Assembly (NCBI GenBank): GCA_050250895.1
Contig: JBFWNU010000001.1
Span: 1,934,884-1,998,883, forward strand
Reading direction: 5' to 3'
Source of the DNA: Vulcanimicrobiota bacterium
GTDB lineage: Bacteria > Vulcanimicrobiota > Xenobia > Xenobiales > JADMJV01
DNA: 64,000 bases
Each line of letters opens with the position of its first letter. Position 1 is the stretch's first letter. Below are positions 16,492 to 52,677 of this stretch, one piece after another. Made by a program: the position numbers and the translations under genes. The notes under the pieces were generated by a model. The model saw only the letters and a program-made list of their open reading frames with translations, made no database searches and had not been told where the DNA came from.

Positions 16492-16500
16492 ACAAGCCGC

Positions 16501-17330: not shown

Positions 17331-17366
17331 GTGTATGCAAGAGAGATTCCACGGAGGTCAAACAGA

Positions 17367-17720
17367 ATGCGCGAAACCGTCACCCAGAAAGCTCACCGTC
17401 TCGTCGACAACTTCCGGGTCGTCCTGTTGGACAACCAGCCCGGCCTGGTCACCGCTGAGGTCATCGGCGACCACAGCACCTACACGGTGCGGTTTCGCCC
17501 CCACGGCGCCTTCTGCGGCTGCAAGTGGTTCCAGATGAAGGGCCACATCAAGCCCTGCAGCCACATCCTGGCCACCCGTCGGGCGATGGACGAGCCCGAG
17601 AGCCAGGAGCCGGTCAAGCGGCTGGCCGAGGCCCTACGGGCCAACCTGCCGGCCAAGAAGCCGCCCGTCGCGGTCACCGAGACGGAAGCCGACCTGCAGG
17701 CGCTCTTCAACTTCCGCTAG
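17367..17720 (+). CDS. SWIM zinc-finger protein
   Basis: TYTV...FCGC...PCSHILA (CxC-x-CxH); RBS GGAGG. Confidence 0.8.
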   Translation: MRETVTQKAHRLVDNFRVVLLDNQPGLVTAEVIGDHSTYTVRFRPHGAFCGCKWFQMKGHIKPCSHILATRRAMDEPESQEPVKRLAEALRANLPAKKPPVAVTETEADLQALFNFR

Positions 17721-17821
17721 CGACCGGGCCCGCAAGGGCCCAACCCCCTCGAGCCTCCTGTTTTCGAACCGTGAGGGCCCCGGCCCGGGTGGAGGCTCGT
17801 TTCTATTTCAGGAGGATTGCT

Positions 17822-18412: not shown

Positions 18413-18472
18413 GAGCCGACCGGAACATCAGACTGGTGGAATGAGAATGGGTAAGTCGTTTCGAAGTTCCGC

Positions 18473-19732: not shown

Positions 19733-19802
19733 GCGAACCTCGACGCTGATGGCCTGAACTTGACGTGGTTTAAGCCTAGGAGAAGGTGCACAACGTGCTT
19801 TC

Positions 19803-21569: not shown

Positions 21570-22007
21570 CAAACCCCCTGGGCGAAAACATGTTCGATGC
21601 CTTCGCAGTAGTCCCTCCTGGCGGTCTGGGCAGAGGGGCTTACTTTGGAAACGGGGGCGGTTTTGGGTAAACGTCGGCCCAGAAGCCCGCAATCAAAAGG
21701 CGCTTCCATCTCGGCTAACAGAAAAAGGTGGTTATTTATGTGCAGAAATTGCAGAAAAAGGGCCCGAGGATGCCGAGAAATACTCCAAGAAACCGTCACT
21801 TTTGCGCGATATTCGGCCAAAATCGTCGGAGAATGCTCCCAGTATCCACCGCTGTGCGAAACGGCCGGCGGCCCGGGAAGCACAAAGCCACCGTCACGAG
21901 CCATTAGGGGGTGGCGTGCTTCGTTCGGGTGGCCGACAACCGTTCGGTCAGGTCCCAGACCATCCCTGTCCCGGACCGTCACCGGGAAGGCGTCCAGTTA
22001 GCGAGCT

Positions 22008-22667
22008 TCACAAAGTGCCGGGGAACTTGATTCCCTCGGGGGTCAGGTTGCGGGCGCGGTAGGCGGTCTTGAAGGCGTTCCATTCGTCTTCGTCGACCTC
22101 AACGAACTCATCCAGCTCCCATATGGGCTCCGTGCCGGGCTTGACCCCCTGGAGGGCCGCCAGGAAGGTTTGGTGGTGCCACCGGTCCCGCTGGGCCATC
22201 TTGAAGTAGCGGACCAGCAGACGGGCCGGCCAGGCCGTCAGGAGCGTGCCCGGGTCGGGCCCGTGATAGGTGGCGCTCACCAGGGCTGCCATCTCCAGCC
22301 AGGCGGCCTCCTCGTGGTCAGCGTGGCGCGGCCGTCGTGACTTCGACACTTTGCCCCGCTGGTAGGTCTGAAACAGCTCGGCCAGGCCGTTCAGCTGGTC
22401 CTGCAGGTCGAACAGCTGGGTCGTCTGGTCGAGGTCGAGTTCAGCGGCCAGCTGGCGGGCGTCCGGGCTTGCGCGCAGGATGAAAGCGACCAGCTGGCGG
22501 CGGGCCAGTTCCTCTCTGCCGGCCGTCAGGGCGTCTCGATAGCGGCCCCGGAGCTGCAAGAACTCCCTTAGCTCCATGGCCGTGGGTTCGCGGAGCGTGG
22601 CCACCACGTGGCCGGCGGCCAGCGGCAGAACGACTTCTTCGGACCGGAATAGCTCGAATGGCCTCAT
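22008..22667 (-). CDS. Tail assembly chaperone, fused gpGT-like
   Basis: N-half resembles 26293-26823; GK junction; C-half GPDPGTLLTAWP..FLAALQGVK resembles T-domain; ATGA-coupled to TMP. Confidence 0.6.
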   Translation of the reverse strand: MRPFELFRSEEVVLPLAAGHVVATLREPTAMELREFLQLRGRYRDALTAGREELARRQLVAFILRASPDARQLAAELDLDQTTQLFDLQDQLNGLAELFQTYQRGKVSKSRRPRHADHEEAAWLEMAALVSATYHGPDPGTLLTAWPARLLVRYFKMAQRDRWHHQTFLAALQGVKPGTEPIWELDEFVEVDEDEWNAFKTAYRARNLTPEGIKFPGTL

Positions 22668-25600: not shown

Positions 25601-26293
25601 CTCGAGGTCCTCGCCGGCCACGGTCGCGACGCTGCCCGTCTTGGTGAGGACGGCGCCGTATTTCTTCAGGTCCTGGCTCGACACTCCGTAGGTGTTGCGG
25701 AGTGACTCGAAGCCCTCGAGGCTGCCGGACAGCGCCTTCCCTACGACAAGGGCCGTCTCGTTGAGGTTGCGGCCCATCCCCGCGGCCAGGTCGGCCACGC
25801 GGGGAAGGACTTCCTGGCTCCGCTGCCCGTAGACCTCGAGTTGAACAGTGGCTTCGACAATGCCCCGCACATCAAACGGTGTACGAGCTGCCAGCTGCTT
25901 GGCTGCCTCGAGGGTCTTTTGGGCCCTGGCCGACGAACCCTGAACGGTCTCGAGTCTGCCCTGCAGTTGCTCGAACTCGCTGGAGATGCGAACGGCGTTG
26001 GCCAGGATGAGGGCCAGCCCGGCACCGGCCGCAGCGGCGGCCACGCCGAAGCCCTTGCCCAGCTCGGTGACCTGGCCTTGGAGCTCCCGATGGTCGTTCT
26101 TGACATGTTCCAGCTCGTTGCTGAGTCCGCGGAAGCGCTCGGTCGCGCCCCTTCCGACCTGGTCCAATTGGACGTTCGCCTCTCGGGCTGCGCGTCCCAC
26201 CCTGTCGATGCCCTTCTCGAGGTCATCAAGGGTCTTCCTGAAAGAGGGGTCTGTCCGAGCGAGAACCTTGAAGATAAGAGCGGTTTCTGGCAT
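22664..26293 (-). CDS. Phage tail tape measure protein (1209 aa)
   Basis: SEFEQLQGRLETVQGSSARAQKTL..AARTPFDVRGIVEATVQL..LPRVADLAAG; TLQGSLSNAAD; Ala/Gly TM-like stretch; long coiled coil; INQTF C-terminus. Confidence 0.9.
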   Translation of the reverse strand: MPETALIFKVLARTDPSFRKTLDDLEKGIDRVGRAAREANVQLDQVGRGATERFRGLSNELEHVKNDHRELQGQVTELGKGFGVAAAAAGAGLALILANAVRISSEFEQLQGRLETVQGSSARAQKTLEAAKQLAARTPFDVRGIVEATVQLEVYGQRSQEVLPRVADLAAGMGRNLNETALVVGKALSGSLEGFESLRNTYGVSSQDLKKYGAVLTKTGSVATVAGEDLEKARQALLRLIQVRFGGAIDRQAKTLQGSLSNAADAVTNFAAKFGDDLAPAVQVGAQIFTKMVEVAGSVPDTFRQIATFGAVATAGLLVLGGGAVTATAGLAAMNQQLALAAVNGFPAAGRAAVVTGSALKGLGAVAGTVGGVMTILTTTIAGPLVAALAIANLATLNYARTQERLGQAIGEQARTIQDSRATLRSITSVVNDLAKEQGVFVERTNDASKFAEQFGKALDNIPAGRLAARLVALGYTLDELKKKLAENREAADERRRQIQALQEAIAKAPPITDSTIQVTDELKTLFPDSWYVSVDEANEALQLLQQEFSDLGQEATALRQAQQKVAAISPDLKALTEETARLKDYLNFAGATGSVDNLKGALSELDAQLARNNEKLKKAALPTSFEGLQRALLEGADQVTEQQRAVIQEQLGLLKTREQLQSSITDKTQQKAKEEVDAVERSLREQKSLREVSTSEEIAELERALAAAKRLGQAGLDDAIQIREKIKAVRAQEAKDAEETAKKLVEGQLKAATQAVTEVKNQQGATAAEVVDQIDLVLTSLQKWRDKNRQLLDDYPELSEQLKEFTDRLTGERGQQATKALADNFNQLKQQVADFSAGATNATQRLEANARAIALIKSAQRRGSIDTATADQELRGLARERLGLEQQITNERRAQADEVAALQIQAVQQEIDLLQTRLQAGEAVEDQLMAKRLELQKVRLEAIDRELQADLAAGKDRELAEQKARLKREAILREGTINRKRELAEQEKDQAAGVARQNAQTGLQTATASLQPPAGAPEGPTPTADPRLTPDQALTGGSTAPSLADLRAKATDDRARRADSFRRSNQLGLELVSQIDESRRTAAVERDTPRLQRAQELFRERLSDKLDRAGVVDSLRAAAAQTAPQVPTFEDIGQAQRKAATPKGSPLDSGGAPKSAPTTINQTFHTTFGPHVTVTPKIEELVNQVAQEIAKQVKRGSLRDGGAGRLGS

Positions 26294-26823
26294 CAGTCCT
26301 CCTGCATGATGCGGTCGGTCGCCTGCTTGACCGCGGCTTGCTCGTAGAGTCGAAGGCCGTGCTCGAAGATCTCGTCGATCTGGTTGACCCGGTCTTGAAG
26401 GGCCAGCACAGCTTGAACGGTCTCCAGGCTACACTGGCGCAGCAGGTCGGGGTCGGCCGGTGGCCCGCCGTCGGTCGGGTGGCGGAGCGCCTGCAGCAGC
26501 AATCCGGTCAGGTTCGACAGCATCCTTTCGACGGCGTCGGCCATCGTCGGGGCCTCGGTGCCCATGTCCTGGATGTCAGCCAGAGCAGATCGAGCTGCAT
26601 CCTCCTGGGCCTGCAGGTAGACCGGCAGCTGGTCGAGCGGCCAGGCCGTCACGGCGAAGGTCCGGCTCGAGCCGTCGGTCAGCTCGAGCACGAACTCTTC
26701 TCGGCGAGGGCGCAGGATGAGGCGCCCTTCCTCGTCGCGGGGTAGGTCCAACTCGGGCCGCGGCCGGGCCTGCACGGCGAAGTTGGCAAAGAGGCCAACG
26801 AGGGGGGAGAGGGAGGTATTCAT
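26293..26823 (-). CDS. Tail assembly chaperone, gpG-like
   Basis: Directly upstream of TMP (TGATG overlap); acidic 176-aa protein; paralogous to 22008-22667. Confidence 0.6.
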   Translation of the reverse strand: MNTSLSPLVGLFANFAVQARPRPELDLPRDEEGRLILRPRREEFVLELTDGSSRTFAVTAWPLDQLPVYLQAQEDAARSALADIQDMGTEAPTMADAVERMLSNLTGLLLQALRHPTDGGPPADPDLLRQCSLETVQAVLALQDRVNQIDEIFEHGLRLYEQAAVKQATDRIMQED

Positions 26824-27125
26824 CTGTTCTTCTTCCTTTCGGGTTTGGTTGAGACGCGAAGCGCCTCCGTAAAGGCCAGGGTGAGGCCGAGAACAAAGGC
26901 GTCCCAGCTTTCGGGCGTGTAGGCCCAGGGCTTGCCAGCTCCGCCGTGAGCCGACTTCCCAGCCTGGTGAGTGACCTTTTCGAAATCGCCTTCCGTCCAC
27001 CAACAGCCCTCCGCTTCGCACTGGTCGAGGATGCCGACAAACTTCTCTTTGCCGTCGACGTGAAGGGCGATGGTTTCCCGTTGGTTGTCGGGGTTGCGGT
27101 CCCACTTGAAAACGATCTGGTTCAC
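26820..27125 (-). CDS. Hypothetical protein
   Basis: RBS AGGAGG; ATGA overlap with next gene. Confidence 0.7.
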   Translation of the reverse strand: MNQIVFKWDRNPDNQRETIALHVDGKEKFVGILDQCEAEGCWWTEGDFEKVTHQAGKSAHGGAGKPWAYTPESWDAFVLGLTLAFTEALRVSTKPERKKNR

Positions 27126-27133
27126 GGGTCCTC

Positions 27134-27523
27134 CTAGAACGGGATGTCGTCAATCCCGAGGCCGTCGCTTTGCCTCGGTGGTTGGGGCTGCCGGCGAGGT
27201 TCCTGGGCCGGCGGGGCCTGCTGGGGTGGCGCCGCCTGCAGGTAGACCTGCAAGTCCGGGTCGCGGTCGTCGTTCTTCTGCTGGTTGGCGAAGACCAGCA
27301 CGCGAGCGCCGCCGAGGCGGCCAACGTAGTAGCGGGTTCCGTTCTTGGATTCGCGGGCCCAGAGGCCGCAGAGCGGGACCTTCGCGGGATAGGATTCGCT
27401 CATCGAGTTGCCTTTCTGCCCGCTTGGCACGGGCTTGGGTTTGGTGGGTGGAGTGGGGGTGGGTTGATTTAGTGGTCGGTAGAAGTCGATAGCAGCCTGA
27501 CGGGCCGCTCGTGAACGGTTCAT
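27134..27523 (-). CDS. Small SSB-like/DUF736-like protein with DDIPF tail (alternative start 27403)
   Basis: GLWARESKNGTRYYVGRL..DDRDPDLQVY; Q/P linker; C-terminal DDIPF. Confidence 0.65.
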   Translation of the reverse strand: MNRSRAARQAAIDFYRPLNQPTPTPPTKPKPVPSGQKGNSMSESYPAKVPLCGLWARESKNGTRYYVGRLGGARVLVFANQQKNDDRDPDLQVYLQAAPPQQAPPAQEPRRQPQPPRQSDGLGIDDIPF

Positions 27524-27771
27524 AGTTCCTCCAGGTGGGGTAGGATGGCCCGGCTGGCCGCCAGGTTCCACGGCGCGGGCTTCAGGGCGCAGGGCTTGGC
27601 CACGAAGTACTCGCGACCGCCGTAGGTGAAGGTCTCACCCCAAAAAGCTAGCTCGACATCCTCCACCAGCCTGGCCCGCCCGATGAGCTGGCCTTCAACG
27701 ACAAGGTCGACCAGGGCGACCACGGGCGGGGCTGGGATTTCTGGATACCAGCAAACAAAAGACACCTTCAT
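27520..27771 (-). CDS. Hypothetical protein
   Basis: ATGA overlaps on both sides. Confidence 0.6.
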   Translation of the reverse strand: MKVSFVCWYPEIPAPPVVALVDLVVEGQLIGRARLVEDVELAFWGETFTYGGREYFVAKPCALKPAPWNLAASRAILPHLEEL

Positions 27772-28619
27772 GCCGCCCCCCAACAGTCGACCGAAAGCGC
27801 CTGGTCGGCGAGGTCGAAGAGTCGCTTCAGGGGGCAGCACCTGCCTAGCGAGCCAGTTTCCATCTCCTCCTGGACGCGAGCGAAGGCTTCTCTGATAGCT
27901 TGCTGGAGTTTGTGGGGTGGTAGGGGGAGGTCTAGGAAGTCTTGTTTTCGCTTTTGCACATACCGCGGGGCCCGGCTCATCTTGCTGGGGGCCAGACGGG
28001 TAAGCAGCTTCTGAAGCCAGGAATCGAAGAGAATCTTCCCACCTCCCCCCTCTTGGGGGGTAAGGGGGGTACTGTCTTTATGTCTTTCCTTGTCTTTAGA
28101 CCCCTCGGAAAGGCTTTTGCCAGAAGGCTCAGACGGGGGTGAAAGGGGGGCCTGGAGGGAACCCTTTGTGGGGGCCTGGAGGGTACCCTTTCTGTGCCCT
28201 CCGGTATCCCCTTTCTCATGCGAAAGGGTTCCCGGAGCTACCCCCTTTTCTTGGTCTGAAAGGGGTCCCTCCGGTATCCCCTTTTCATCGGGTCGGGCCG
28301 TACGACTCGAACCCTTGGGGGTGTTGGGTGGTGGTGGCCAGTTCAAGCTGAGTTCACTCTTGGCGCCGCGGTGGGTGCCTTGAGCGTGTCGGTGAAGTAG
28401 GCCGGCGCTTGTCAGGCTCCGAAGAGCTGTGCGAATCACCTTCTTGGTGTGGCCCGTCAATGTCATCAGCTCAGCGACAGTGATACGCACCCGCTCAACC
28501 CTCCATCCCCAGGTTTCGCGCTCGATGATGTCCAGAACGTCGCGCTCTGAGCCACGCAGGCCCTGTTTCGCAAGGTGCCGCGGCCAATCGTTCGGCCGTT
28601 GATACCAACCGTGACTCAT
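27768..28619 (-). CDS. Phage replication initiator (lambda O-like N-terminal wHTH)
   Basis: LRGSERDVLDIIERETWGW...ITVAELMTLTG..VIRTALRSLTSAGLL; internal iteron-like repeats; coupled to DnaB. Confidence 0.8.
   Translation of the reverse strand: MSHGWYQRPNDWPRHLAKQGLRGSERDVLDIIERETWGWRVERVRITVAELMTLTGHTKKVIRTALRSLTSAGLLHRHAQGTHRGAKSELSLNWPPPPNTPKGSSRTARPDEKGIPEGPLSDQEKGVAPGTLSHEKGDTGGHRKGTLQAPTKGSLQAPLSPPSEPSGKSLSEGSKDKERHKDSTPLTPQEGGGGKILFDSWLQKLLTRLAPSKMSRAPRYVQKRKQDFLDLPLPPHKLQQAIREAFARVQEEMETGSLGRCCPLKRLFDLADQALSVDCWGAA
28141..28316. repeat. Iteron-like repeats; putative replication origin
   Basis: About six imperfect units ending in CCCTT(T), several of form AAAGGG-Nx-CCCTTT; GGGGCCTGGAGGGWACCCTTT x2; CCCTCCGGTATCCCCTTT x2. 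Confidence 0.65.
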
Positions 28620-30010
28620 TGGAGGTCGCCTCCGAAGTCAAGACTGTCCCAGCTCTCGTCTGGGACGGATTCGCAAACCTGCCGGGGCACAAGAGCCGGC
28701 TCAAACCGGGTGAGTCGTCCCACCCATCGAAGCCGGATGTTGACGAGCTCGCCGTTTCGGCGCTTGCGCACGTAGAGCCACGCCTCTTCTGGGTCGGCGT
28801 TCTTGCTGAACATCACCGGCCGATGGAGCATCAAGACCAGGTCGGCATCCTGTTCCAGGTGGCCCGACTCGCGAAGGTCGCTCAGCTGAGGGGTCTTGTC
28901 TGGGCGCCTTGTCACGTCGCGGCTCAGCTGACACAGCACGATGACGGCCAGGCCGGTGCGCCGAGATAAGGCCTGCAGGACCCTGCTCGCCTCGCTGGTC
29001 TGCTCATAGTCGCGCCGGCCGAGGTGGCCCAGGTGGTCGATGACCACCGCCTTGGCGTCGGGGTGCCGAATCACGAATCGCTCGATTTGACCCAGCACCG
29101 TGGCCAGCTCCTGGCCCGCGGGGCCCAGCTGGTCGAGGATGTAGAGCGGGCACCGGTCGCGCAGGCGCTCTTCCAGCTCGAGCGCCACGCCCGCTGAAGG
29201 CACGACCTCGCGGAGCTGGGCGACGTAGCGGCCGGCCAGTTCAGCGCCGGGCATCTCGCCGGACACGTAGAGCGTTGGCCCATGTTGGCCCGCGATGTGC
29301 TTTGCAAGAGCGCCCGTCAAAGCCGACTTGCCCATCGAGGGGCGTCCGGCGATGATGGTCATCGCGCCCAGCGGCAGGCCGCCGTTCTCATCGAGCGCCG
29401 GGAGCCCGGTAGTCAGGCCCGTCTTTGTGTCGGCGTTCTCCTGCAGTTCTCGGGCAAGCTCGGCCATGGCGTCGGCAATATGAACCGGCTCATGCCGAAG
29501 ACCGCGCCCTGTGGCCCTGACCAGGTCGTCAGCGACCCTAATGGCCAGGGCCGTCGCGTCAGCGTCAGGCGACCGCAGTTCGCTCAGCAAGTGCCGGGCA
29601 GCGCGCTCTATCTCGCGCCGCTGGGCCTGCTTGACCACCAGGTCGACCAGGGCGAAGGCCGCCGAGTCGGTTGAGTCTACATCGGTGGCCAGTACGGCCT
29701 GAAGCGCCTCTGGGTCGAGGTGCTCGGCCAGCAGGTGAGGGTGAACCCGGTGGCCTCGCTTGACCAGCTCCCGCAGGCCGCGATAGCCGCGCCTGGCGGC
29801 CAGGTCCGCGAAGTCTGATTCTACGGCGACCCGCAGAAGGTAGGCGGTCCGGTTCTCCGACTCGAGGGCGCAACGGATGGCGCGCCGTTCGGTGAGGGCG
29901 GCCGGGGACGTTTGCGCGTTGTCTTTGGATGGCGTAGTATGGTGGTGACGCCGTTTGTCACCCTTGCCCCCCTGGTCGCCAGCCTTCGGGGCTCTTTCAT
30001 TTTCGGGCAT
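28616..30010 (-). CDS. DnaB-like replicative helicase
   Basis: IIAGRPSMGKS, VIDHL, LCQLSR, LSDLRESGHLEQDAD, KRRNG. Confidence 0.9.
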   Translation of the reverse strand: MPENERAPKAGDQGGKGDKRRHHHTTPSKDNAQTSPAALTERRAIRCALESENRTAYLLRVAVESDFADLAARRGYRGLRELVKRGHRVHPHLLAEHLDPEALQAVLATDVDSTDSAAFALVDLVVKQAQRREIERAARHLLSELRSPDADATALAIRVADDLVRATGRGLRHEPVHIADAMAELARELQENADTKTGLTTGLPALDENGGLPLGAMTIIAGRPSMGKSALTGALAKHIAGQHGPTLYVSGEMPGAELAGRYVAQLREVVPSAGVALELEERLRDRCPLYILDQLGPAGQELATVLGQIERFVIRHPDAKAVVIDHLGHLGRRDYEQTSEASRVLQALSRRTGLAVIVLCQLSRDVTRRPDKTPQLSDLRESGHLEQDADLVLMLHRPVMFSKNADPEEAWLYVRKRRNGELVNIRLRWVGRLTRFEPALVPRQVCESVPDESWDSLDFGGDLQ

Positions 30011-30102
30011 CTTTCGTCCTTATGGCGGTGGAATCTGTAACTCCATCGTGTGATACCTCCTCACTGTCTTGACAGAAATTCAATCCGTCGGTCAAAAAAA
30101 AA

Positions 30103-30285
30103 TCAATCGCCTTCGAGTAGCCGCCGCAACCGACACAAAGGCACCAGCAGGCGCCGTCCAACTCGGATTGTGGGGATGTCCCCCCGACGGGCTGCAGCAT
30201 AGCTAGACTGGCGGCCTAGACCAAGCATTCGGCCGGCCTTTGGCACAGAAATGGCCAGGGGCTTCTCTTCGGGCTTGGCATTCAC
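30103..30285 (-). CDS. Excisionase/AlpA-like HTH
   Basis: ISVPKAGRMLGLGRQSSYAAARRGDIPTIRVGRRLLVP; GTGA overlap with cro. Confidence 0.85.
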   Translation of the reverse strand: MNAKPEEKPLAISVPKAGRMLGLGRQSSYAAARRGDIPTIRVGRRLLVPLCRLRRLLEGD

Positions 30286-30509
30286 GCCGAGGCCGCTTCC
30301 TGCTCGGTGGCCACCACCAGGGTTTCTACGGGTATGCCGGTGACCTTCGAAAGTCGCATGAGCACTCCCACGCTCACACCGATCACGCCCCCCATCTGCT
30401 GGTAAAAGGTGTCTTTGGTCACCCCGATTTTGTTGGCAAGCCAAACAAAGGTTCGACCTTCTCGCGCCTTCCAGCGCCGAAGCTCGCTCTGGTTGAGGCG
30501 ATACTGCAT
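30282..30509 (-). CDS. Cro-like XRE HTH regulator
   Basis: LANKIGVTKDTFYQ..LMRLSKVTGIPVETL; AGGAGG upstream (start may be TTG 30515). Confidence 0.75.
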   Translation of the reverse strand: MQYRLNQSELRRWKAREGRTFVWLANKIGVTKDTFYQQMGGVIGVSVGVLMRLSKVTGIPVETLVVATEQEAASA

Positions 30510-30545
30510 GTCCAAAGCTTCAAGCCTCCTCTCTCTTGATTTAAA

Positions 30546-30631
30546 AAGTTTCAAACTTAGTTTACCATTGTCTGGAGGTTTGTCAATCTGATATGGTAAA
30601 CTTGTTTGTATCATAAGTTTGGAACTTAGTT
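30546..30631. promoter_or_regulatory. Divergent promoter/operator switch
   Basis: AAGTTT(CA/GG)AACTTAGTT at 30546 and 30615; inverted AGTTTACCAT/ATGGTAAACT; minus-strand TTGACA-16-TAAACT. Confidence 0.7.
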
Positions 30632-30635
30632 AGAT

Positions 30636-31229
30636 ATGAACTTCAAACAAAGTTTTGGGCGGCGTTTACGCTCTGCCCGCAATGAGCGCGGGCTTTCGCA
30701 ACGCGAATTAGCCGAGCTTCTGGGGGTGAGTGCGGCCGTGGTTTCGGATTGGGAGGTCGCCAAGTCGAGTCCTCAGCTCGAACGGCTGGAGCAAATAGCT
30801 TCTCACCTGCAGAAGTCACCGGCCTGGTTTTTTGTCGAGGAGGACGCCGGTTCAAGGGGTGTTGAGGTCGCGGCAAGCTCGCCAGAGATGGTCGACCTTT
30901 TGAACAGCGCAGCAGATTTCTGTGAACGCGAAGGTCAACGGGCGAAACTCCACGCCGAGGCTTTCGCCTGCTTTCAAAGATACTTCGAAGCCGTCGGTTC
31001 GATGACTCTTGCAAGCCTGTCGCAGGAGCAAAAGGAGGCTTTGAGTTTCACGACCACCCAGAGGCTATTCGACGCGGGTCAAATGGAACCGGAGGTGATG
31101 GAGTTCGCCGACGATGGCCCGGGAGTGGTGATTACTGGGAGTGACCTGCTAAACACTATTGAGGCGCACCTTGCGGGCTCATTGAGGGAGTTGCGTCGTC
31201 TTGACGCAGGCCGTGGGGGTCAAGCATGA
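30636..31229 (+). CDS. XRE-family repressor (Stl/ImmR-like, no S24 domain evident)
   Basis: FGRRLRSARNERGLSQRELAELLGVSAAVVSDWE HTH. Confidence 0.85.
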   Translation: MNFKQSFGRRLRSARNERGLSQRELAELLGVSAAVVSDWEVAKSSPQLERLEQIASHLQKSPAWFFVEEDAGSRGVEVAASSPEMVDLLNSAADFCEREGQRAKLHAEAFACFQRYFEAVGSMTLASLSQEQKEALSFTTTQRLFDAGQMEPEVMEFADDGPGVVITGSDLLNTIEAHLAGSLRELRRLDAGRGGQA

Positions 31230-32413
31230 GAGGGCACATCCAGAAGCGGGGCAACGGTTACCGGGTCGAGATTCACATCGGCTACGACGAGCAAGGCAAG
31301 CGGATTCGCCACCGCCAGACACTCTCGACCAAGAAGGCGGCCGAGAAGTACATGCGTGCCAAGCTCGACGAGCTGGAGACCGAAGGCGGCATCCGCGCGA
31401 AGAGCCTCGAGACACTGGAAGCCTATCTCAAGCGGTGGCTAGAGGTGTCGGCCGCGCCCCGCGTCAGGCAGCGCACGCTGGAGGACTACACCGAGAAGCT
31501 TCGTGGCTACGTCTTCGAAACGCCGCTCGGCCGCAAGCCGCTCGCCACGGTCACGCCGAGCGACATCCAGGAGCTTTACGCATCGGTGCAGGCCCGAGTA
31601 AAGGCGTCAGGCCGTGGCAACGGCGTGACCTCGGTGAAGCGCCTTCACGCGGTGCTGAGGAGCGCCATTAACCAGGCGGTGAAGTGGCGTCTGCTCACTC
31701 AGAACGTCTGCCTGTTTGTCGACCTACCGAAACAAAATCGGGCCGATGACCCGTATGGCCGCCAGCACAAAAAGGAGGTCCTTCAGACAGAGGATTTCCC
31801 GGCCTTCATCCAGGCCGCCCTACAGGAAGAGCGCCTCGGGGCAATGTGGGTTCTGGCGCTGCAGACCGGCCTGCGCCCTGGTGAGTATCTGGGTCTTCAG
31901 TGGGCCGACTTCGGACCGAACCTTCGCCAGTTCACCGTCAACCGCGCCCTGGTCCGGGTGCGCACCGAGGACGGACAGGGTTGGCGGTTCGAGGAGCCCA
32001 AGACCCGCCGGAGCCGGCGAACGGTGGTGCTCGACACCGAGGTCATCTTCTTGCTCAAGCAGCATCGAACCCAGCAGAACGAGGAGCGTTTGGCCGCGGG
32101 TTCGGCCTACGAGGACCACGACCTGGTGTTCTGCAACGAGATCGGCGGGCCGCTCCACCAGCACAACCTATCTCAGAGGGTTTTCCCTCGCATCATCGAG
32201 CGGGCCGGCCTGTCGGGCAAGCTCACGCCTTACAGTTTGCGCCACAGCACGGCGACCCACTTGCTCCGGGCTCGCGAGAACCTCAAGATCGTTTCCGAGC
32301 TGCTCGGCCATAGCTCCATCAGCCTAACGGCCGATGTATACTCCCACGTGGCCCCGGACATGCTGGAAGGGGCAGCCAGCAAAATGGGAAGCGCGATGTT
32401 CGGCATGCAGTGA
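31226..32413 (+). CDS. int: Tyrosine integrase with N-terminal arm-binding domain
   Basis: TGLRPGE, PKT, YSLRHS, LGHS, DVYSH; adjacent to tRNA att. Confidence 0.95.
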   Translation: MRGHIQKRGNGYRVEIHIGYDEQGKRIRHRQTLSTKKAAEKYMRAKLDELETEGGIRAKSLETLEAYLKRWLEVSAAPRVRQRTLEDYTEKLRGYVFETPLGRKPLATVTPSDIQELYASVQARVKASGRGNGVTSVKRLHAVLRSAINQAVKWRLLTQNVCLFVDLPKQNRADDPYGRQHKKEVLQTEDFPAFIQAALQEERLGAMWVLALQTGLRPGEYLGLQWADFGPNLRQFTVNRALVRVRTEDGQGWRFEEPKTRRSRRTVVLDTEVIFLLKQHRTQQNEERLAAGSAYEDHDLVFCNEIGGPLHQHNLSQRVFPRIIERAGLSGKLTPYSLRHSTATHLLRARENLKIVSELLGHSSISLTADVYSHVAPDMLEGAASKMGSAMFGMQ

Positions 32414-32595
32414 AGGCGAGTTCATGCGCGGAAATGGTCCATATGAAATCGTTCAAGGCCCGACTCAAACTAGCTCAGCCAATCTGCCTCCACTGTCAGC
32501 AACCCCATCTTGACCCCGAGTTCAAGCCGGTGTCGTCGAATCTCTGTGGGTACTGTGCGATTGCCGTCTGGGAGGGGCCTCCCGAGAAAGACTAG
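32410..32595 (+). CDS. Small CxxC/CxxC protein
   Basis: CLHC...CGYC; GTGA overlap with integrase. Confidence 0.4.
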   Translation: MKASSCAEMVHMKSFKARLKLAQPICLHCQQPHLDPEFKPVSSNLCGYCAIAVWEGPPEKD

Positions 32596-32637
32596 AGCTG
32601 GCCCTGGATTGAGGGGGCCGTGGCCGGGATAGCCAAT

Positions 32638-32660
32638 TTGGTCCCCAATAGGTCCCCAGG
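32638..32660. promoter_or_regulatory. Putative integrase arm-type sites (right)
   Basis: TTGGTCCCCAATAGGTCCCCAGG vs TTGGTCCCCAGCCGGTCCCCAGG at 14925. Confidence 0.75.
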
Positions 32661-32691
32661 CCGGCCATCCTGGCCATGGTCTCCCCTCGCC

Positions 32692-32730
32692 AAAAGAAGA
32701 GAGAACCGCACGACTGCGCGGTTCTCTCTT
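32692..32730 (-). terminator. Intrinsic terminator after tRNA operon (duplicated at 14736-14775)
   Basis: AAGAGAGAACCGC...GCGGTTCTCTCTT hairpin followed by U-run on minus strand. Confidence 0.8.
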
Positions 32731-32804
32731 GGTGGGTCGTGTAGGATTTGAACCTACGACCACCTGATTAAAAGTCAGATGCTCTACCCCTGAGCTAACG
32801 ACCC
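32730..32804 (-). tRNA. tRNA-Lys (UUU), integration target
   Basis: GGGTCGTTAGCTCAG...CTGA CT TTT AA TCAG...GGTTCAAATCC..ACCA. Confidence 0.95.
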
Positions 32805-46135: not shown

Positions 46136-46295
46136 GATCTCAACTCCTTAAAGGCTTTGTCTATATTATATTGAGCGATCGCCAGAAAGATCAAACGCGC
46201 AATGTTAAAAGCCTGCGTTTAACTTACCGATTTCTTAGGGGGCACAGAGGAAAACTTGAAGGATATTCTATTTCTTGGACGAAGCCAAATCTGCT

Positions 46296-47753
46296 ATGTC
46301 GAAAAAGGTCTTGGGCGGACGATTCCAACTAGAAGGTAAGCTCGGCGAAGGGGGCATGGGCTCGGTATACCGCGCCCTCGATCTTGTCTCGCGGAAGTCG
46401 GTGGCTATTAAGATCCTCAGGCGTGACCTCAGCGAGTCGCGCCACGCCAGGCGGCGCTTTGCCCGCGAAGCGCGGGCGGCACGAATGTTGAACCATCCTG
46501 GCATCGTCAAAGTTCTGAAGTTCTGCGACGAAAGTCGCCCTTATATCGTGATGGAACTCGTCGACGGCGTCTCTATGCGTCGCTTTGTGCGGCGCGAGAA
46601 GCCCGACGCGGTTCGCCTGCTCGGGCTGGTCGAAGACCTATGCGACGCGCTGGCCCATGCTCACGACCGCGGGGTCGTACATCGCGACATGAAGCCCGAC
46701 AATATCGTGGTGGCCAAAGACGACAACGTAAAAGTGCTCGATTTTGGTCTGGCCCGGGTTCGCCTGCCCGAGATTTCGCACCTTACGCGTTCTGGTTCGG
46801 CCCTGGGCACCTGTAGTTACATGGCTCCCGAGCAGGCTTCGGGCCGGCCGGCGGATGAACGTAGCGACCTCTACTCGATGGGGGTCATTCTCTATGAGGC
46901 GTTGTGCGGACGCACGCCCTTCACTGCCGACGACCCGGCCTCGATTCTTTACATGCATGTGCACGAAGAACCCAAGCCGCCGCGTATGCACAATCCGGAT
47001 ATTCATCCGGAGGTCGAACGCTTGATCCTCGACCTGATGTCGAAAGATCCTGACAACCGACCGGCCAACGCCCGCGCCCTGAAGCAGCGGGTTGTTTCGT
47101 TACGCAAGACTTTGCGCGGCGAGTCGGACGGGTCCGAGCCGGCGCGGGTGGAAGAGCCGGTGGTTCGGGGTGGAGTTGGTTTGCCGCAGGCTCTACCAGA
47201 CGCAATTCCGTTCGAGCCGTCCGATGGCGATCCGGTGAGCGTGTTGGCTGCCGATGTGCCCGGCTTTGCCATGTTGACTCGAGGGCGCAACCCCCTCGAG
47301 GCTACCGAACTCGAGTCTCAGCTGGTCGAAGAACTGGAGGGATCGATTCGTTCCTTTGACGGGCGCGTGCTCGATCGCTACGGCACGCGGGTGGTGGCGG
47401 CGTTCTGCGGCCAGGGGCACGGCACCCGGGCGGTCAACTCGGTGCAAGCGATGCGGACGCGGATCATGGCGGTGATGAGCCGCTATAGCTTCCAGGCCAC
47501 TCCGGTGGTGTCGGCTGGCGTCTTTGCTGGCGAGATTCCCAACCGGGCTCCCGGCGACTCGTGGGAAGAGGTGGCCAAGCAAGAGTTGATGCACGGAGCC
47601 TCTCGTCTCGAGCGTTTGTCGCGCAAGTTGCCCGACGACACTCTGGTCAGTGAAGATTGCGTGGCCGATGGGGTGCCTGTCGAGCCTTTGCGCTCGCTGT
47701 TCGTGCGCGGGCGACGAGAGCCTATCAAGGTTTTTCGCGTGCTGTCGGCCTAG
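46296..47753 (+). CDS. Ser/Thr kinase with C-terminal degenerate class III cyclase domain
   Basis: LGEGGMG, VAIK, HRDMKPDN, DFG, APE; ADVPGF..ASRLE..VRGRREP. Confidence 0.88.
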   Translation: MSKKVLGGRFQLEGKLGEGGMGSVYRALDLVSRKSVAIKILRRDLSESRHARRRFAREARAARMLNHPGIVKVLKFCDESRPYIVMELVDGVSMRRFVRREKPDAVRLLGLVEDLCDALAHAHDRGVVHRDMKPDNIVVAKDDNVKVLDFGLARVRLPEISHLTRSGSALGTCSYMAPEQASGRPADERSDLYSMGVILYEALCGRTPFTADDPASILYMHVHEEPKPPRMHNPDIHPEVERLILDLMSKDPDNRPANARALKQRVVSLRKTLRGESDGSEPARVEEPVVRGGVGLPQALPDAIPFEPSDGDPVSVLAADVPGFAMLTRGRNPLEATELESQLVEELEGSIRSFDGRVLDRYGTRVVAAFCGQGHGTRAVNSVQAMRTRIMAVMSRYSFQATPVVSAGVFAGEIPNRAPGDSWEEVAKQELMHGASRLERLSRKLPDDTLVSEDCVADGVPVEPLRSLFVRGRREPIKVFRVLSA

Positions 47754-47803: not shown

Positions 47804-48241
47804 GTGGAAGTCTTCTTGTTGCGGATTTTTCCCGTTCTTCTTTTTTTGGGGGGGGTCGTCTTCGTTCCCGTCGAGATCCGCAACTTCGCCCGCGAGAAGG
47901 CTCAAGGCCAAGCCCGCCCGGTCAAACTGATTCGTCGTCTACTGGGGGCCGTGGTGCTGGCCGGTCTGGCAGCCATGGTCTTTTTCGGCGAACTGCCCAA
48001 AGACGCCCACCAGGATGCGGCCGCCACCATGGCCCAGTTTCAGTATTGGTTGAGCGTGTTGGGTCTGGCCATCTTCCTGGGTTGCCTGGCCGTCTGGGAT
48101 GCCCTCGACGGCTTTCGCCACCTGCGCGGCTACCTGGCTCGGGTCGAGTCGGAGGAGATCGAGCAACTACACCGCCAACTCGGAAAGTCAGGAGCCCAGC
48201 TCAAGGCCCAGGCCAACGGCAAGCCCAGTGACTCGGATTAA
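47804..48241 (+). CDS. Hypothetical 3-TM protein
   Basis: Hydrophobic segments; overlaps trpF start. Confidence 0.65.
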   Translation: MEVFLLRIFPVLLFLGGVVFVPVEIRNFAREKAQGQARPVKLIRRLLGAVVLAGLAAMVFFGELPKDAHQDAAATMAQFQYWLSVLGLAIFLGCLAVWDALDGFRHLRGYLARVESEEIEQLHRQLGKSGAQLKAQANGKPSDSD

Positions 48242-48854
48242 GATCTGTGGCTTGACCCGTCCCCAAGATGTGGATCGGGCTGTCGATTTGGGAGCGGATT
48301 GCATCGGGTTTGTGCTGGCCGAGAGTTCGCGCCAGATAGACCTGCCAACCCTGGCCGCTTTGACCCGGCGAATCCCACCGCCGATTGCCCGCATCGCGGT
48401 CATGGTCGACCCCAGCCCGGCAGAGGTGCAAAAGGCTCTGGAGTTGGTCGACTGGGTTCAGCTTCACGGCCGCGAGACTCCTGAATTTTGCGGGCGTTTT
48501 CCTGGTCGGTTGCTCAAGGCGTTTCGGGTGCGTCAGCCCGACGACCTCGAGGTGGGCGAATATGCCGAAGTGGTCTCGGCCTATCTTTTTGACGCCTATC
48601 ACCCGCGCCTGGCCGGAGGAACCGGCGAGCGCTTCAACTGGGAGTGGCTGCAGGGCCGCCAGTTCGCCAGGCGTTTCTTTCTGTCGGGCGGATTGACCCC
48701 GGCCAACGTGGGTCAGGCCATCGAAGAGGTGTGTCCGTGGGGAGTCGACGTCTCGAGCGGAGTGGAGAGCGACCGCGGCATCAAAGACCCGAGCTTTATG
48801 GCCGACTTTATCAACCAGGCCAGGCTGGCCGCGGGTTTCTCGCCCCGTTCCTGA
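48228..48854 (+). CDS. trpF: Phosphoribosylanthranilate isomerase
   Basis: KICGLT, VQLHG, GGTG, SGGL, DVSSGVE. Confidence 0.93.
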   Translation: MTRIKICGLTRPQDVDRAVDLGADCIGFVLAESSRQIDLPTLAALTRRIPPPIARIAVMVDPSPAEVQKALELVDWVQLHGRETPEFCGRFPGRLLKAFRVRQPDDLEVGEYAEVVSAYLFDAYHPRLAGGTGERFNWEWLQGRQFARRFFLSGGLTPANVGQAIEEVCPWGVDVSSGVESDRGIKDPSFMADFINQARLAAGFSPRS

Positions 48855-48928
48855 GTAACTGACCGACTCTCTCAAGTCTCAGCAGGCTGCCGGCCAGGTC
48901 GAGTCGCAGGGTTGCTTCCCTCCGCACC

Positions 48929-48957
48929 TTGACCACACATGCAATATTGGTTATGAT
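48929..48957 (+). promoter_or_regulatory. sigma70-type promoter of leader-peptide/tRNA unit
   Basis: TTGACC-17 bp-TATGAT; CAATATTG palindrome in spacer. Confidence 0.75.
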
Positions 48958-48987
48958 GTTGGCACATTCTTCCCCAGGAGGTCCCCT

Positions 48988-49053
48988 ATGAAGCGCAAGT
49001 TCCGAAAACGTAACTTCTTTCGATTTACGAGGACCTGTAGTGTCAACGGTTAG
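48988..49053 (+). CDS. Putative leader peptide MKRKFRKRNFFRFTRTCSVNG (21 aa)
   Basis: AGGAGG 6 nt upstream of ATG; TAG stop in the D-arm of the following tRNA. Confidence 0.6.
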   Translation: MKRKFRKRNFFRFTRTCSVNG

Positions 49054-49106
49054 CACACGCGCCTTTTAAGCTTGGAGTCGGGGTTCGAATCCCTGCGGGT
49101 CCACCA
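49031..49106 (+). tRNA. Atypical tRNA-Lys (UUU)
   Basis: GGACCTG/CGGGTCC acceptor; GTGT/GCAC D-stem; CGCGC CT TTT AA GCTTG (one mismatch); ACCA. Confidence 0.8.
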
Positions 49107-49110
49107 GTCC

Positions 49111-49187
49111 GGTCTCTTAGTGTAGCCGGTGTCGCACGCGGGATTGAAGATCCCGAAGTCTCGGTTCGAGTCCGAGAGAGACCACCA
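49111..49187 (+). tRNA. Atypical tRNA-Phe (GAA)
   Basis: GGTCTCT/AGAGACC acceptor; GTGT/GCAC D-stem; CGGGA TT GAA GA TCCCG; ACCA. Confidence 0.85.
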
Positions 49188-49188
49188 G

Positions 49189-50463
49189 TCATTCCAATTT
49201 CAGCCAGTTGGCTCTTGCCGTGTGCACCACGTCGTCGGTGCGTTTGCGCAGGTGGCGGTGCGGATTGAGGGACGAGGCGAGAAAGCCCGTGATGCCCAGC
49301 GAGGGCACAACGATACCCATCACGGGGCCAAATCCGATGCCGGCGAGTGGACCCTGGGGTCCCGTGAAAAATTGGACGCCGAAACTTGCCAGGATGCCCG
49401 ACGCCAGCAAGGCATATACTGCCTGTTCCAGGTTGAAGTCTGGGTGAATCAGGCTGGCCATGATTCCCCGCGCTCGCAAAGTCTCGATGCGCGGGGCGAG
49501 GGCCTCGAGTTGCTGCTGCCAGGTCAAGTCGCACGTCTTTCTCAGCTGGGCTACTTCGGGATTGTCCAGCACAGTGCCCTCGTTGAGGTGGTGGGTGAGA
49601 TTCTGGCCGGCCACCAGGGCCCGGGCTCCGACTTGAGGGCCGGGCAGGTCGAGGCTGGCTCGCACGACCCCCCGCACCACCACCTGCATCTGGTTGGGGC
49701 CAGTCAAATCGAGGGGGAGAAGAAAGGCCCTCGAGGCCCCGCAATCGCCCGAACTGCCGGTCGGTCGCACCAGCAGCAGTTCCTGTTCGTTCTCGGGGAC
49801 GCGAATCTTGAAGGGCGGGTTGCTGGCAGCCGTGACCAGGTCCAGGCTCAGCAGCCGGCGGTTGGGGGCCGGCCAGGCCATGGCCTCCTGGCCGTCCCAA
49901 AAGCAGCGCAGGGGTGCAAAGCGACACTTTGCCTCGAAGGTAGCTCTCAGGTCGCGGGCAAAGCCTGCCCAGTCAGACTTCTCGGGGCCGCTTAGAATCA
50001 AACCCTGGGCGTGTGACTCTCCATCCAGGGCCGGGCACTCCCCGGGGCACCAGGCATCGTCTTCGACAAAGAGCGAGTAACCGCCGGTAAAATCCACAAA
50101 GACGGGCCGGATGTCTTCGGCGAACAGGGCTCCGTTGAGGCATAGCGACAGGTCCTGGTAGAGGTCGCTGTCGGTGGCGAAAGGGTTGGCCAGGGCCTGT
50201 TGCAGCCTGGCCAGGTCGAGTTGCCGTCGAGGGGGATCGAGCCAGAATGCCAGCCCCTGGCTCGAGGTTTGCACGCGAACTTCTTCGATCTCGAGGCCGT
50301 AGCAGAATTGGACGAACTTGAGCAGAAAGGCGTGGCGGTCGCCCTCGAGGTGTCGGGCCAGCTTTTCGCGAGCCGATTGGGCCGAGATGGTGAAGCGACC
50401 GGTCGATACAAAGCGCCCGCTTTCCCGCAGCTGGTCTAAGACGTGGTTTAGCCCCCCGCTCAT
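49189..50463 (-). CDS. Hypothetical protein with C-terminal TM pair
   Basis: 424-aa ORF; GRFTIS..AREKL N-terminus. Confidence 0.7.
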   Translation of the reverse strand: MSGGLNHVLDQLRESGRFVSTGRFTISAQSAREKLARHLEGDRHAFLLKFVQFCYGLEIEEVRVQTSSQGLAFWLDPPRRQLDLARLQQALANPFATDSDLYQDLSLCLNGALFAEDIRPVFVDFTGGYSLFVEDDAWCPGECPALDGESHAQGLILSGPEKSDWAGFARDLRATFEAKCRFAPLRCFWDGQEAMAWPAPNRRLLSLDLVTAASNPPFKIRVPENEQELLLVRPTGSSGDCGASRAFLLPLDLTGPNQMQVVVRGVVRASLDLPGPQVGARALVAGQNLTHHLNEGTVLDNPEVAQLRKTCDLTWQQQLEALAPRIETLRARGIMASLIHPDFNLEQAVYALLASGILASFGVQFFTGPQGPLAGIGFGPVMGIVVPSLGITGFLASSLNPHRHLRKRTDDVVHTARANWLKLE

Positions 50464-51400
50464 CGGGATAGGCTTCGCGATGGGTCCTTCGGGCCCCTCG
50501 GCAGACGCACGGTGAAGGTCGTGCCCACCCCAAACTCGCTCTTGACCTCGAGGCTGCCACCCAGAAGTTGGCAGAAGTTGCGGGTCAGGGTCAGGCCGAG
50601 ACCGGTGCCGCCAAAGCGGCGGGCGATGGTGGCATCGGCCTGGGTGAAGGGCTCGAACACTCTGCCCGGCTGCTCGGGAGTCATCCCGATGCCGGTATCC
50701 TCGACCACTCCTCGCGGCAGATCTTGGCCCCTCCGGCTTCCAGCTTGCCAGGCTCGAGGATGCCTTCGATCAATTTGAGCAGGTGCTTGGCGTTGCGATC
50801 GATGGTCTCGAGGCAGTCACGGTCGCGCTCGGGCAGGTCGACCAGCAGCATCTCGGTGAAGCCGAGGGTCGAGCTCATCGGGGTGCGCAGCTCGTGGGTG
50901 ACGTGGGCTAGAAATCCGGTCCGGGCTCGCGTAGTGGCCTCGAGGGCCTTTTTTTCGTGCTCGAGCTGGCTCAGGCGACGCCGTTCGGTCAGGTCGCGCG
51001 AGTTGAGCACCAGTCCCCCCTGGACGTCGGCGCTGACCACAGCCTGCAGAAATCGGTCTCCCAGGCGAAAGTCGAGGCTGAAAGTCTGGTCGGGGTTCTC
51101 GCGGGCTCGGGCCAGACTAAGCCGCAGGCTTTCCGTATCATCGCGGTCGACCTGCTCGGGTAACGGCTGGCCGCGCAACCACTCGGCGGTGAGCCCGAGC
51201 CGGTCGATGGCGGGGCTGACATAGGTCACGCGATCCTTCGGGTCGAGCACCAGGGTGGTGTCCGACGAACACTCTCGGAGGTCAACTCGTAGACGGTGGA
51301 CCGGTTCTCGAGCAGCATGACCAGGGTCAAAAGCAGGGCCACCAGCACTACCGGCGCGGTCATCAGTAGCGGGACCCGGACACGTATGGGAAGTCGGCCT
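50460..51400 (-). pseudogene. Fragmented PAS sensor histidine kinase
   Basis: TM, PAS + HELRTP H-box, and DTGIG/GGTGLGL fragments in different frames; N-box region missing. Confidence 0.75.
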
Positions 51401-51477
51401 AGAATGGGCCCCCATTCTGCGCGGCCGGCCCCGCCAGGCTGGCAGGCGCCCCCCTGGGCAGGAACGAACCGACGGCC

Positions 51478-52677
51478 ATGACCATGTCCGTTCCGGTGGG
51501 GCCCGAAGCCCTGGCCGTGCCCGACGCTCGCGGTCGCTTCGGCGAGTTTGGCGGGCGCTTCGTTCCTGAAACCCTGATGGCGGCCCTGGCCGAGCTCGAG
51601 GCCAACTATGACGAGGCTCGCGACGACGACCTGTTCTGGCTGGAGCTGGCCACGATCAGCGCCAGCTTCTCGGGGCGGCCCACTCCGCTCTATCCCGCTC
51701 CGAGGCTGTCCGAGAGCTGGGGAGTCGAAGTCTTTCTCAAGCGAGAGGACCTCAATCATACCGGTTCCCACAAGCTCAACAACTGTCTTGGCCAGGCACT
51801 TCTCGCCCAACGGCTGGGCAAGAAACGCATCATTGCCGAGACGGGCGCGGGCCAGCACGGGGTGGCCACGGCCACGGTCTGTGCTCGTTTCGGCCTCGAG
51901 TGCGTCATCTACATGGGGGCCGAAGATGTGCGCAGGCAGGCCCTGAATGTCTATCGCATGGAGCTGATGGGAGCGACCGTGGTGCCCGTCGAGTCAGGCT
52001 CGAAGACGCTCAAAGACGCTACCAACGAGGCCTTGCGCGATTGGGTAACCAACGTCGAGACCACTCACTACATCATCGGCTCGGTGGTGGGGCCTCACCC
52101 CTTTCCTCGCATGGTGAGGGACTTCCAGTCGGTCATCGGCCGCGAGATTCGCCAGCAACTCGGCGCCGACCCCGATCTGGTGGTGGCTTGCGTGGGGGGC
52201 GGCTCGAACGCGGCCGGCGCCTTTGCTCCCTTTGTCACCAATCCGGCCGTGCGGCTGGTGGGGGTCGAGGCCGGCGGTCACGGCCAGGCCAGCGGCCAGC
52301 ACTGTCGCTCGCTCACCCTGGGCCAACCAGGCATTCTGCATGGAGCCCGCACCTATCTGTTGCAAGACCAGGGCCAGGTCCAGCTCACCCATTCGGTGTC
52401 GGCGGGCCTGGATTATCCGGGAGTGGGCCCCGAGCACAGCTTCTGGAAGGACACCGGCCGGGTCGAGTATCACTCGAGCACCGACGCCGAGGCGCTCGAG
52501 GCATTCCAATTCCTGTGTCGTCGCGAGGGCATCCTGCCGGCCCTCGAGACCTCGCACGCCCTGGCCTGGTGCGCCCGCAACCTGCCGACGCTGGAGGCCT
52601 CGACCCGCGCCGTGGTCTGCCTGTCGGGACGCGGCGACAAAGACGTGGTGGAAGTCAAGAGGTTGCTCGCACAATGA
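51478..52677 (+). CDS. trpB: Tryptophan synthase beta chain
   Basis: [33 protein letters not shown]. Confidence 0.97.

Follow-up and report, generated by a model that had tools for sequence, protein, structure and literature searches.

A spare, probably phage-derived tRNA-Lys/tRNA-Phe pair between trpF and trpB of a Vulcanimicrobiota bacterium, with a short lysine- and phenylalanine-rich reading frame running into the first tRNA

Supernumerary transfer RNA (tRNA) genes that spread by horizontal transfer are already well described. In this study we focus on one such pair, a tRNA-Lys(UUU) followed by a tRNA-Phe(GAA), in the genome of a bacterium of the Vulcanimicrobiota phylum (GenBank assembly GCA_050250895.1), and on a short open reading frame (ORF) that begins ahead of the pair and runs into the tRNA-Lys. 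The window, that is the whole stretch of DNA that was analysed, comprises 64,000 nucleotides (nt) of contig JBFWNU010000001.1 (positions 1,934,884 to 1,998,883), and positions are counted from its first letter. The tRNA clusters of phages and mobile elements (PMC4758250, PMC8421152) are described as extra copies beside the housekeeping set that are absent from relatives, as is the case here. The likeness probably extends to the D-arm type of the pair's tRNA-Lys, which is found mainly in viral multi-tRNA clusters, and to the G37 of its tRNA-Phe. The pair differs from these clusters in that it has two tRNAs only, lies between trp genes and has no adjacent integrase or phage gene, and the arrays examined contain no close relative of its tRNA-Phe. 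A tRNA array unit has been defined as at least 20 tRNA genes at 2 per kilobase (kb) or more (PMC4758250), and the two tRNAs of the present locus fall short of that number.

The trn L-array of Anabaena sp. PCC 7120 is described as a set of 23 tRNAs that stay silent until translational stress, with 9-nt direct repeats over the -10 box and the start site that are attributed to a hypothetical repressor (PMC8421152). The words 'leader' and 'attenuat' are absent from the text of that paper (PMC8421152). What our locus shares with the array, as far as the array is described there, is the idea of an inducible subset of spare tRNAs for impaired translation. Unlike in Anabaena, no direct repeat was found over the promoter of the pair (48929-48965) among the largest 20 of 33 repeat families between 48700 and 51700. 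Phage T5 in turn is reported to carry a variant of tRNA-Lys(UUU) that escapes the PARIS nuclease AriB (PMC11464382, PMC12409363). Here as well a sequence-variant tRNA-Lys(UUU) of phage type stands beside the host copy, but the gene is chromosomal, the genome has no DUF4435 (AriB-type) gene, and the anticodon loop is the same as in the canonical tRNA.

With regard to the ORF, the known counterparts are the leader peptides of ribosome-mediated attenuation, of the pheL, hisL and trpL type. They have in common with it a short ORF that bears a Shine-Dalgarno (SD) site and is rich in codons cognate to the genes downstream. At our locus, however, terminator and antiterminator hairpins are lacking, as is a U-tract, tRNAs stand downstream instead of biosynthetic genes, and the ORF overlaps the very RNA that would be regulated. 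A second counterpart is tpr of Escherichia coli, a small protamine-like ORF listed in the tyrT transcript (PMC3141248). The likeness is that of a small and very basic ORF on a tRNA transcript. tpr lies downstream of the tRNA genes and not in the leader, and it is not known to overlap a tRNA, a position that differs from that of the ORF described here.

With moderate confidence we regard the pair as spare tRNA-Lys and tRNA-Phe genes of foreign type, probably derived from a phage, and the ORF in their leader as a by-product, not as a sensor that gates their maturation. As a case of another bacterium keeping foreign spare tRNA genes, by a clean insertion between trpF and trpB, the locus is ordinary. 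The leader ORF is its interesting part: the SD site, the length and the Lys/Phe content are each unusual when set against several hundred comparable ORFs. The features of the locus are the following.

48929-48957, forward strand: sigma-70-type promoter TTGACC-17-TATGAT, with 10 of 12 matches
48929-48934, forward strand: -35 box TTGACC
48952-48957, forward strand: -10 box TATGAT, with a 17-nt spacer to the -35 box
48964-49030, forward strand: predicted 5' leader of the pre-tRNA, about 67 nt, its start site placed from the -10 box
48976-48981, forward strand: SD sequence AGGAGG, with a 6-nt spacer to the ATG
48988-49053, forward strand: 21-codon ORF MKRKFRKRNFFRFTRTCSVNG*, with an ATG start and a TAG stop (49051-49053) in the D-arm of tRNA-Lys
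48990-49021, forward strand: weak A/T-rich hairpin GAAG(CGC)AAGUU...AACUUCUUUC, within the ORF
49031-49106, forward strand: supernumerary tRNA-Lys(UUU), with encoded CCA, D-stem GUGU/GCAC, C14, a C29-U41 mismatch and a 4-nt variable loop
49111-49187, forward strand: supernumerary tRNA-Phe(GAA), with encoded CCA, G37 and D-stem GUGU/GCAC

All the elements that an earlier sequence-only reading had reported in this region are present, namely the promoter, the AGGAGG, the ORF, its overlap of 23 nt with tRNA-Lys, and the two tRNAs, which are separated by 4 nt. The promoter is the one promoter-like site between 48500 and 49600, an interval in which shuffled sequences contain 0.2 such sites on average, and its form matches that of the promoters of the genome's other tRNA genes, except for the distance to the tRNA. 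Codons 2 to 13 of the ORF comprise three Lys, four Phe, four Arg and one Asn; in the whole peptide Arg accounts for 5 of the 21 residues, and Lys or Arg for 8 of them. The hexamer AGGTCC (48979-48984), which overlaps the SD sequence, is the exact reverse complement of GGACCT (49031-49036), the first six bases of tRNA-Lys, and in the centroid fold of the precursor it is paired with this 5' strand of the acceptor stem. The fold of the leader is no more stable than that of shuffled sequences (z = 0.50); no terminator-like site was seen after the ORF, and the leader contains no alternative or antiterminator hairpin. When the region was compared with Rfam at E values up to 1, it matched the two tRNAs (50.8 bits for tRNA-Lys and 60.8 bits for tRNA-Phe, with a cut-off of 29) and no further RNA family, and the leader was left unmatched.

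The host genome (9.5 megabases, 63% G+C, 17 contigs) yields 64 tRNA calls by ARAGORN, of which 54 have an Rfam match; the ten or so calls that have none look like false positives. It contains a canonical tRNA-Lys(UUU) in the window itself (32730-32804, 75.9 bits), a canonical tRNA-Phe(GAA) elsewhere (72.7 bits) and also a tRNA-Lys(CUU). The nearest other tRNA cluster, 16 kb away, is made of five canonical genes. Among the 54 matched tRNAs, the pair's tRNA-Lys ranks 52nd by score, which is third-lowest, and its tRNA-Phe 37th. The pair's tRNA-Lys is identical to the canonical tRNA-Lys(UUU) at 46 of 73 positions, and the anticodon loop CUUUUAA is the same in both. The two members of the pair have in common the GUGU/GCAC D-stem, the 4-nt variable loop, the encoded CCA and a GTC trailer. 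In standard numbering, as we read the positions from the Rfam match, tRNA-Lys has a C at position 14, where an A would be expected, and tRNA-Phe has a C at position 21 and a G after the anticodon, a place normally occupied by A in bacterial tRNA-Phe.

Such departures could mean that both genes are in decay or serve no purpose in translation, as decoys or pseudogenes, and that the locus is under no selection. The third-lowest score of tRNA-Lys, its C14 in place of A and the C-U mismatch in its anticodon stem would fit this explanation, as would the G37 and C21 of tRNA-Phe and the broken kinase gene next door. We nevertheless consider it very improbable: both genes form full cloverleaves and score well above the Rfam cut-off, both have kept the anticodon, the A73 discriminator and the encoded CCA, a good promoter stands upstream, and the C14 of tRNA-Lys and the G37 of tRNA-Phe are common to the tRNAs of phage arrays.

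The genome also contains other extra tRNAs that are not canonical. A tight Leu(CAG)-Tyr-Ser(UGA) cluster is located at C13:52651-52907, and its 'Leu' member measures just 78 nt, with no long variable arm. There are, besides, two additional tRNA-Pro(UGG) of divergent sequence, at C1:3194844-3194920 and C11:21512-21588.

The landmarks in the surroundings of the pair are as follows.

48099-48854: trpF
48855-51477: lineage-specific insertion of 2.6 kb between trpF and trpB
51478-52677: trpB, followed by trpA

In 10 of the 21 trpF loci of relatives, trpB comes directly after trpF, at most a few tens of bases away, and one of these ten belongs to a genome of the same genus, where the gap measures 25 nt. 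The remaining 11 loci have no trpB inside the 1.5-kb flank, and none of the 21 has a tRNA. Because trpF and trpB are adjacent in ten relatives' loci and tRNAs occur in none of the 21, the segment 48855-51477 is a lineage-specific insertion. The proposal of a backup tRNA cassette, made from the sequence alone, thus stands: the pair consists of divergent second copies of tRNA-Lys(UUU) and tRNA-Phe(GAA) with a promoter of their own, the canonical copies are located elsewhere, and the whole is carried by a lineage-specific insertion.

By BLAST, the pair with its leader was found in none of 40 relatives, a set that includes 15 other genomes of the family, and the canonical Arg-Lys pair of the window, used as a positive control, was recovered in all 40, with 94% identity in the same genus. 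Among 400 genomes of the phylum, with two candidates per genome scored, nine gave weak and partial matches to the tRNA-Lys region (76-91% identity over 31-73 nt). Of the leader these matches include no more than 4 nt, and its remainder, like the promoter and the tRNA-Phe, had no match in this sample. Phage and plasmid records returned generic tRNA matches alone, at no more than 78% identity. In viral contigs, a loop-only pattern, a D-arm pattern and a 20-nt stretch of the leader each gave no match. A single pattern scan each of species genomes and of metagenome contigs returned tRNA clusters and never the pair, although exact-pattern scans of this kind can miss diverged copies and so do not by themselves establish its absence.

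The pattern used for the species genomes was built on the tRNA-Lys, with the D-stem, the anticodon loop and the T-loop fixed and the other stems left free. Across one genome each of 185,579 species it was found at six loci, five of which are clusters of 3-11 tRNAs and one of which has 2; four of the six come from metagenome-assembled genomes of Pirellulaceae. In viral contigs the same pattern was found at no fewer than 60 loci. All of those listed have several tRNAs, from 2 up to 42 (median 16). A related pattern specific to the pair retrieved two metagenome contigs with 8 and 21 tRNAs, and the contig with 21 contains a phage portal gene. The C14 of the pair's tRNA-Lys and the G37 of its tRNA-Phe also occur in phage-array tRNAs; a G follows the anticodon in 20 of the 35 tRNA-Phe of the viral loci among the matches listed. 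The order tRNA-Lys then tRNA-Phe was seen in no viral locus among these matches. To judge from these scans, phage tRNA clusters are where this type of tRNA-Lys is mainly found, and the pair is most likely a piece of one.

We propose that the 2.6-kb insertion brought the pair in and split trpF from trpB, its source being most likely a phage tRNA cluster or another mobile element. Transcription from the pair's own sigma-70-type promoter would give a precursor of about 225 nt with a leader of about 67 nt, and cleavage by ribonuclease P (RNase P) at 49030/49031 together with trimming of the 3' ends would release two tRNAs with encoded CCA. These could add decoding capacity for AAA/AAG and UUU/UUC, or they could serve as sequence-variant spares in the manner of phage-array tRNAs. 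The SD sequence and the ATG would be a real or once-real translation start that was carried along with the foreign DNA, and the ORF itself could be one of the small ORFs that fill phage tRNA regions, or what is left of a gene. Some of the precursors are probably loaded with ribosomes ahead of processing. The presence of a broken kinase gene in the same insertion, a sign of decay nearby, is in line with this proposal.

An ORF that overlaps the 5' end of a tRNA is, by itself, no more than chance: among the 64 tRNAs of this genome, 15 are entered by an ATG ORF of 15 codons or more, and with a minimum of 12 codons the figures are 29 of the 69 tRNAs in eight array loci and 341 of 1034 phage-array tRNAs. 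Long ORFs of this genome show a strong enrichment (313 cases) of AGGAGG placed 4-9 nt ahead of the ATG, from which it follows that the organism uses SD sites, and the 3' end of its 16S ribosomal RNA contains the anti-SD sequence CCTCCT. Ahead of ORFs of at most 30 codons the same arrangement occurs 72 times, which is the background rate. In our view pure chance is not the best account of the SD sequence and the ATG, which more probably mark a translation start that is, or once was, in use.

Several observations weigh against the explanation that we prefer. As to the origin of the pair, the best viral match of tRNA-Lys, among the matches listed, has an identical D-arm and is identical at 61 of 73 positions, a figure that is partly imposed by the search pattern. 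No close relative of tRNA-Phe was found with two patterns, the best match (54 of 74 positions) being to a tRNA-Lys. No integrase or att repeats were seen flanking the insertion, and its protein genes have native-looking paralogues, so that taken as a whole it is not plainly foreign. As to the ORF, the one run-in ORF among the 64 tRNAs of the genome that is preceded by a 5-mer SD motif (GGAGG or AGGAG) is this one, with its full AGGAGG; among 1034 phage-array tRNAs, one has a run-in ORF preceded by AGGAGG and four have one preceded by a 5-mer. Lys and Phe, cognate to the two tRNAs, make up 7 of codons 2 to 14, a share of 0.54. The maximum cognate share elsewhere is 0.22 in 91 other run-in ORFs (any start codon, longest per stop) and 0.27 in 431 ATG ORFs of phage arrays (nested ATGs being counted separately, so that these are not independent), 522 ORFs in total. 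In dinucleotide shuffles of codons 2 to 14, at least three Lys together with at least four Phe arise with a probability of 2.5e-4, although the locus was chosen after the fact from a very large scan and local p-values of this sort overstate the surprise. Finally, the distance of 73 nt from the -10 box to the tRNA is the longest among 24 promoter-proximal tRNAs of the genome. Three independent oddities, the share of Lys and Phe, the SD site and the length of the leader, are thus left unexplained if the ORF is a by-product.

For comparison, the distance from the end of the -10 box to the mature 5' end is 8-15 nt in 18 of these 24 tRNAs, 20-39 nt in four and 65 nt in one. Almost leaderless tRNA promoters, with implied leaders of about 1-8 nt, are seen throughout the genome (for example at C1:505623, C1:1207161 and C2:244111).

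Other sources of the ORF were also considered. The codons for Lys (AAG/AAA) and Phe (TTC/TTT) are near reverse complements of each other, and the two arms of a hairpin therefore supply some of each; as the full cause of the Lys and Phe richness a hairpin was rejected, since dinucleotide shuffles rarely reach the count. A duplicated trpB start as the source of the SD sequence and ATG was likewise discarded, no such sequence being present at the trpB starts here or in the genome of the same genus. The stretch KRNFFR in the peptide fits a relaxed twin-arginine (Tat) pattern, which raised the idea that the ORF is the stump of a gene with a Tat signal. A strict search of N-termini for a counterpart gave none, and a relaxed one gave 13 N-termini, about nine of which are apparently true RRxFLK signals; the single look-alike proved to start at a Met inside a larger protein.

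The alternative put forward in the sequence-only reading is that the leader ORF senses the capacity to decode Lys and Phe and gates the maturation of the spare tRNAs. In such a model, which applies the logic of attenuation to tRNA processing with the tRNA fold as the switch, freely running ribosomes would melt the tRNA-Lys acceptor stem and D-arm and hold RNase P back, and a stall at the early Lys or Phe codons would let the tRNAs fold, so that maturation would take place under a shortage of the cognate tRNAs or once these have been damaged, for example after the action of an anticodon nuclease or in starvation. The start signals (a perfect SD sequence, the 6-nt spacing and the anti-SD in 16S ribosomal RNA), the 7 cognate codons out of 13, which are an outlier against both the 522 run-in ORFs and the shuffles, and the unusually long leader all argue for it. 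Moreover, the pairing of AGGTCC, at the SD sequence, with the GGACCT of tRNA-Lys means that ribosome binding could in principle affect the formation of the acceptor stem. Spare tRNAs that are needed only under translational stress or nuclease attack are also known from other systems, as described in PMC8421152, PMC11464382 and PMC12409363.

We nonetheless judge this model to be improbable. It concerns a single locus with no orthologue in the collections searched and hence no sign of selection, and neither a terminator, an antiterminator nor an alternative-hairpin switch is present. Arg, with four of codons 2 to 13, is enriched like Phe, yet the cassette encodes no tRNA-Arg. A ribosome stalled at Phe10-Phe13 (49015-49026) would, going by the size of its footprint, leave the RNase P site covered; one that terminates is gone within seconds, which makes the expected effect on tRNA yield small; and RNase P cleavage would separate the ORF from its stop codon. 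No AriB-like (DUF4435) gene was found in the genome, other anticodon-nuclease families not having been searched. In the open-access literature no description of leader-peptide control of tRNA maturation was found. The sensor idea at this single locus is accordingly presented as a candidate and not as a finding. If it were true, maturation gated by an ORF would add a new means by which cells or phages call up spare tRNAs as they are needed, and it would provide a link to the defence systems that target tRNAs and to the phage tRNAs that counter them.

A different possibility is that the ORF is a real gene for a highly basic peptide of 21 residues that shares the tRNA transcript, its match to the identity of the tRNAs being coincidental. 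The richness in Lys, Arg and Phe would then reflect the role of the peptide, for example in RNA or membrane binding. The strong SD sequence and ATG and the 8 Lys or Arg among 21 residues are consistent with this, and there is an E. coli precedent in the protamine-like ORF listed on a tRNA transcript (PMC3141248). On the other hand, the peptide has no homologue and no family match, and it is too short for large protein searches; RNase P would cut off its last 7 sense codons and the stop; and A or T occupies about half of its third codon positions, whereas the genome has 63% G+C. On balance we consider such a gene unlikely.

The sequence-only reading had also raised the alternative of a macrolide-sensing arrest peptide, in which +x+ motifs stall drug-bound ribosomes and thereby activate the genes that follow. 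The peptide does contain K-R-K, K-F-R and R-K-R, but +x+ motifs occur in any polybasic peptide, and what lies downstream is the tRNAs and a convergent gene of unknown family, with neither a resistance gene nor a second, sequestered ribosome-binding site. This alternative did not hold up, and we attach next to no probability to it.

Comparable ORFs were seen at two array-type loci. At L050:3071-3199 and L051:694-816, ATG ORFs enter an array-type tRNA-Lys(UUU) in the same frame as here and read ...CSVNGST(V/A)VF across the D-arm; in their upstream parts they too are basic. The D-loops of these two tRNA-Lys lack the extra T that makes the TAG stop at our locus.

Beyond the pair, the insertion and its left flank contain three further genes.

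46275-47753: Ser/Thr kinase, upstream of trpF
49189-50463, reverse strand: protein of 424 residues and unknown family, convergent on the pair, with a stop codon that begins 2 nt past tRNA-Phe
50460-51415, reverse strand: broken histidine kinase, with PAS and HisKA in one frame and a remnant of the ATPase domain in another

The order of genes is thus Ser/Thr kinase, trpF, tRNA pair, 424-residue protein, broken histidine kinase, trpB and trpA. The 424-residue protein gave no match with Pfam, NCBIfam or PADLOC. Its N-terminal 110-200 residues have weak paralogues in ORFs of 350-700 residues at 19 places in the same genome, and this region has matches in 25 of 40 relatives; it may be an unnamed domain that has expanded in this lineage. 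The C-terminus of the protein looks hydrophobic. In the broken kinase, the PAS/HisKA frame extends from 51415 to 50681, and the last 70 or so residues of the ATPase domain are encoded from 50708 to 50460, ending at the start of the 424-residue ORF. PADLOC gave no match for either of these two neighbouring proteins.

Two observations made further afield concern mobile DNA and tRNA genes. A probable integrated element of about 18 kb occupies 14775-32804 of the window, at the canonical tRNA-Lys(UUU): 14775-14822 is a 48-nt exact copy of the 3' part of that tRNA, and a tyrosine integrase (31226-32413) adjoins the tRNA. Between this copy and the integrase, it encodes a DnaB-like helicase, a phage replication-O-like protein, a tape-measure-like protein, a STAND NTPase, an M78 (IrrE-like) peptidase and a DNA methylase that carries a fused restriction-endonuclease-like domain. 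In a metagenome-assembled genome of Pirellulaceae (L054:844-2826), an array-type tRNA-Lys and a tRNA-Ile adjoin genes for an MT-A70 methyltransferase and for the RNA 2'-phosphotransferase Tpt1/KptA, the latter being an enzyme of RNA-repair type.

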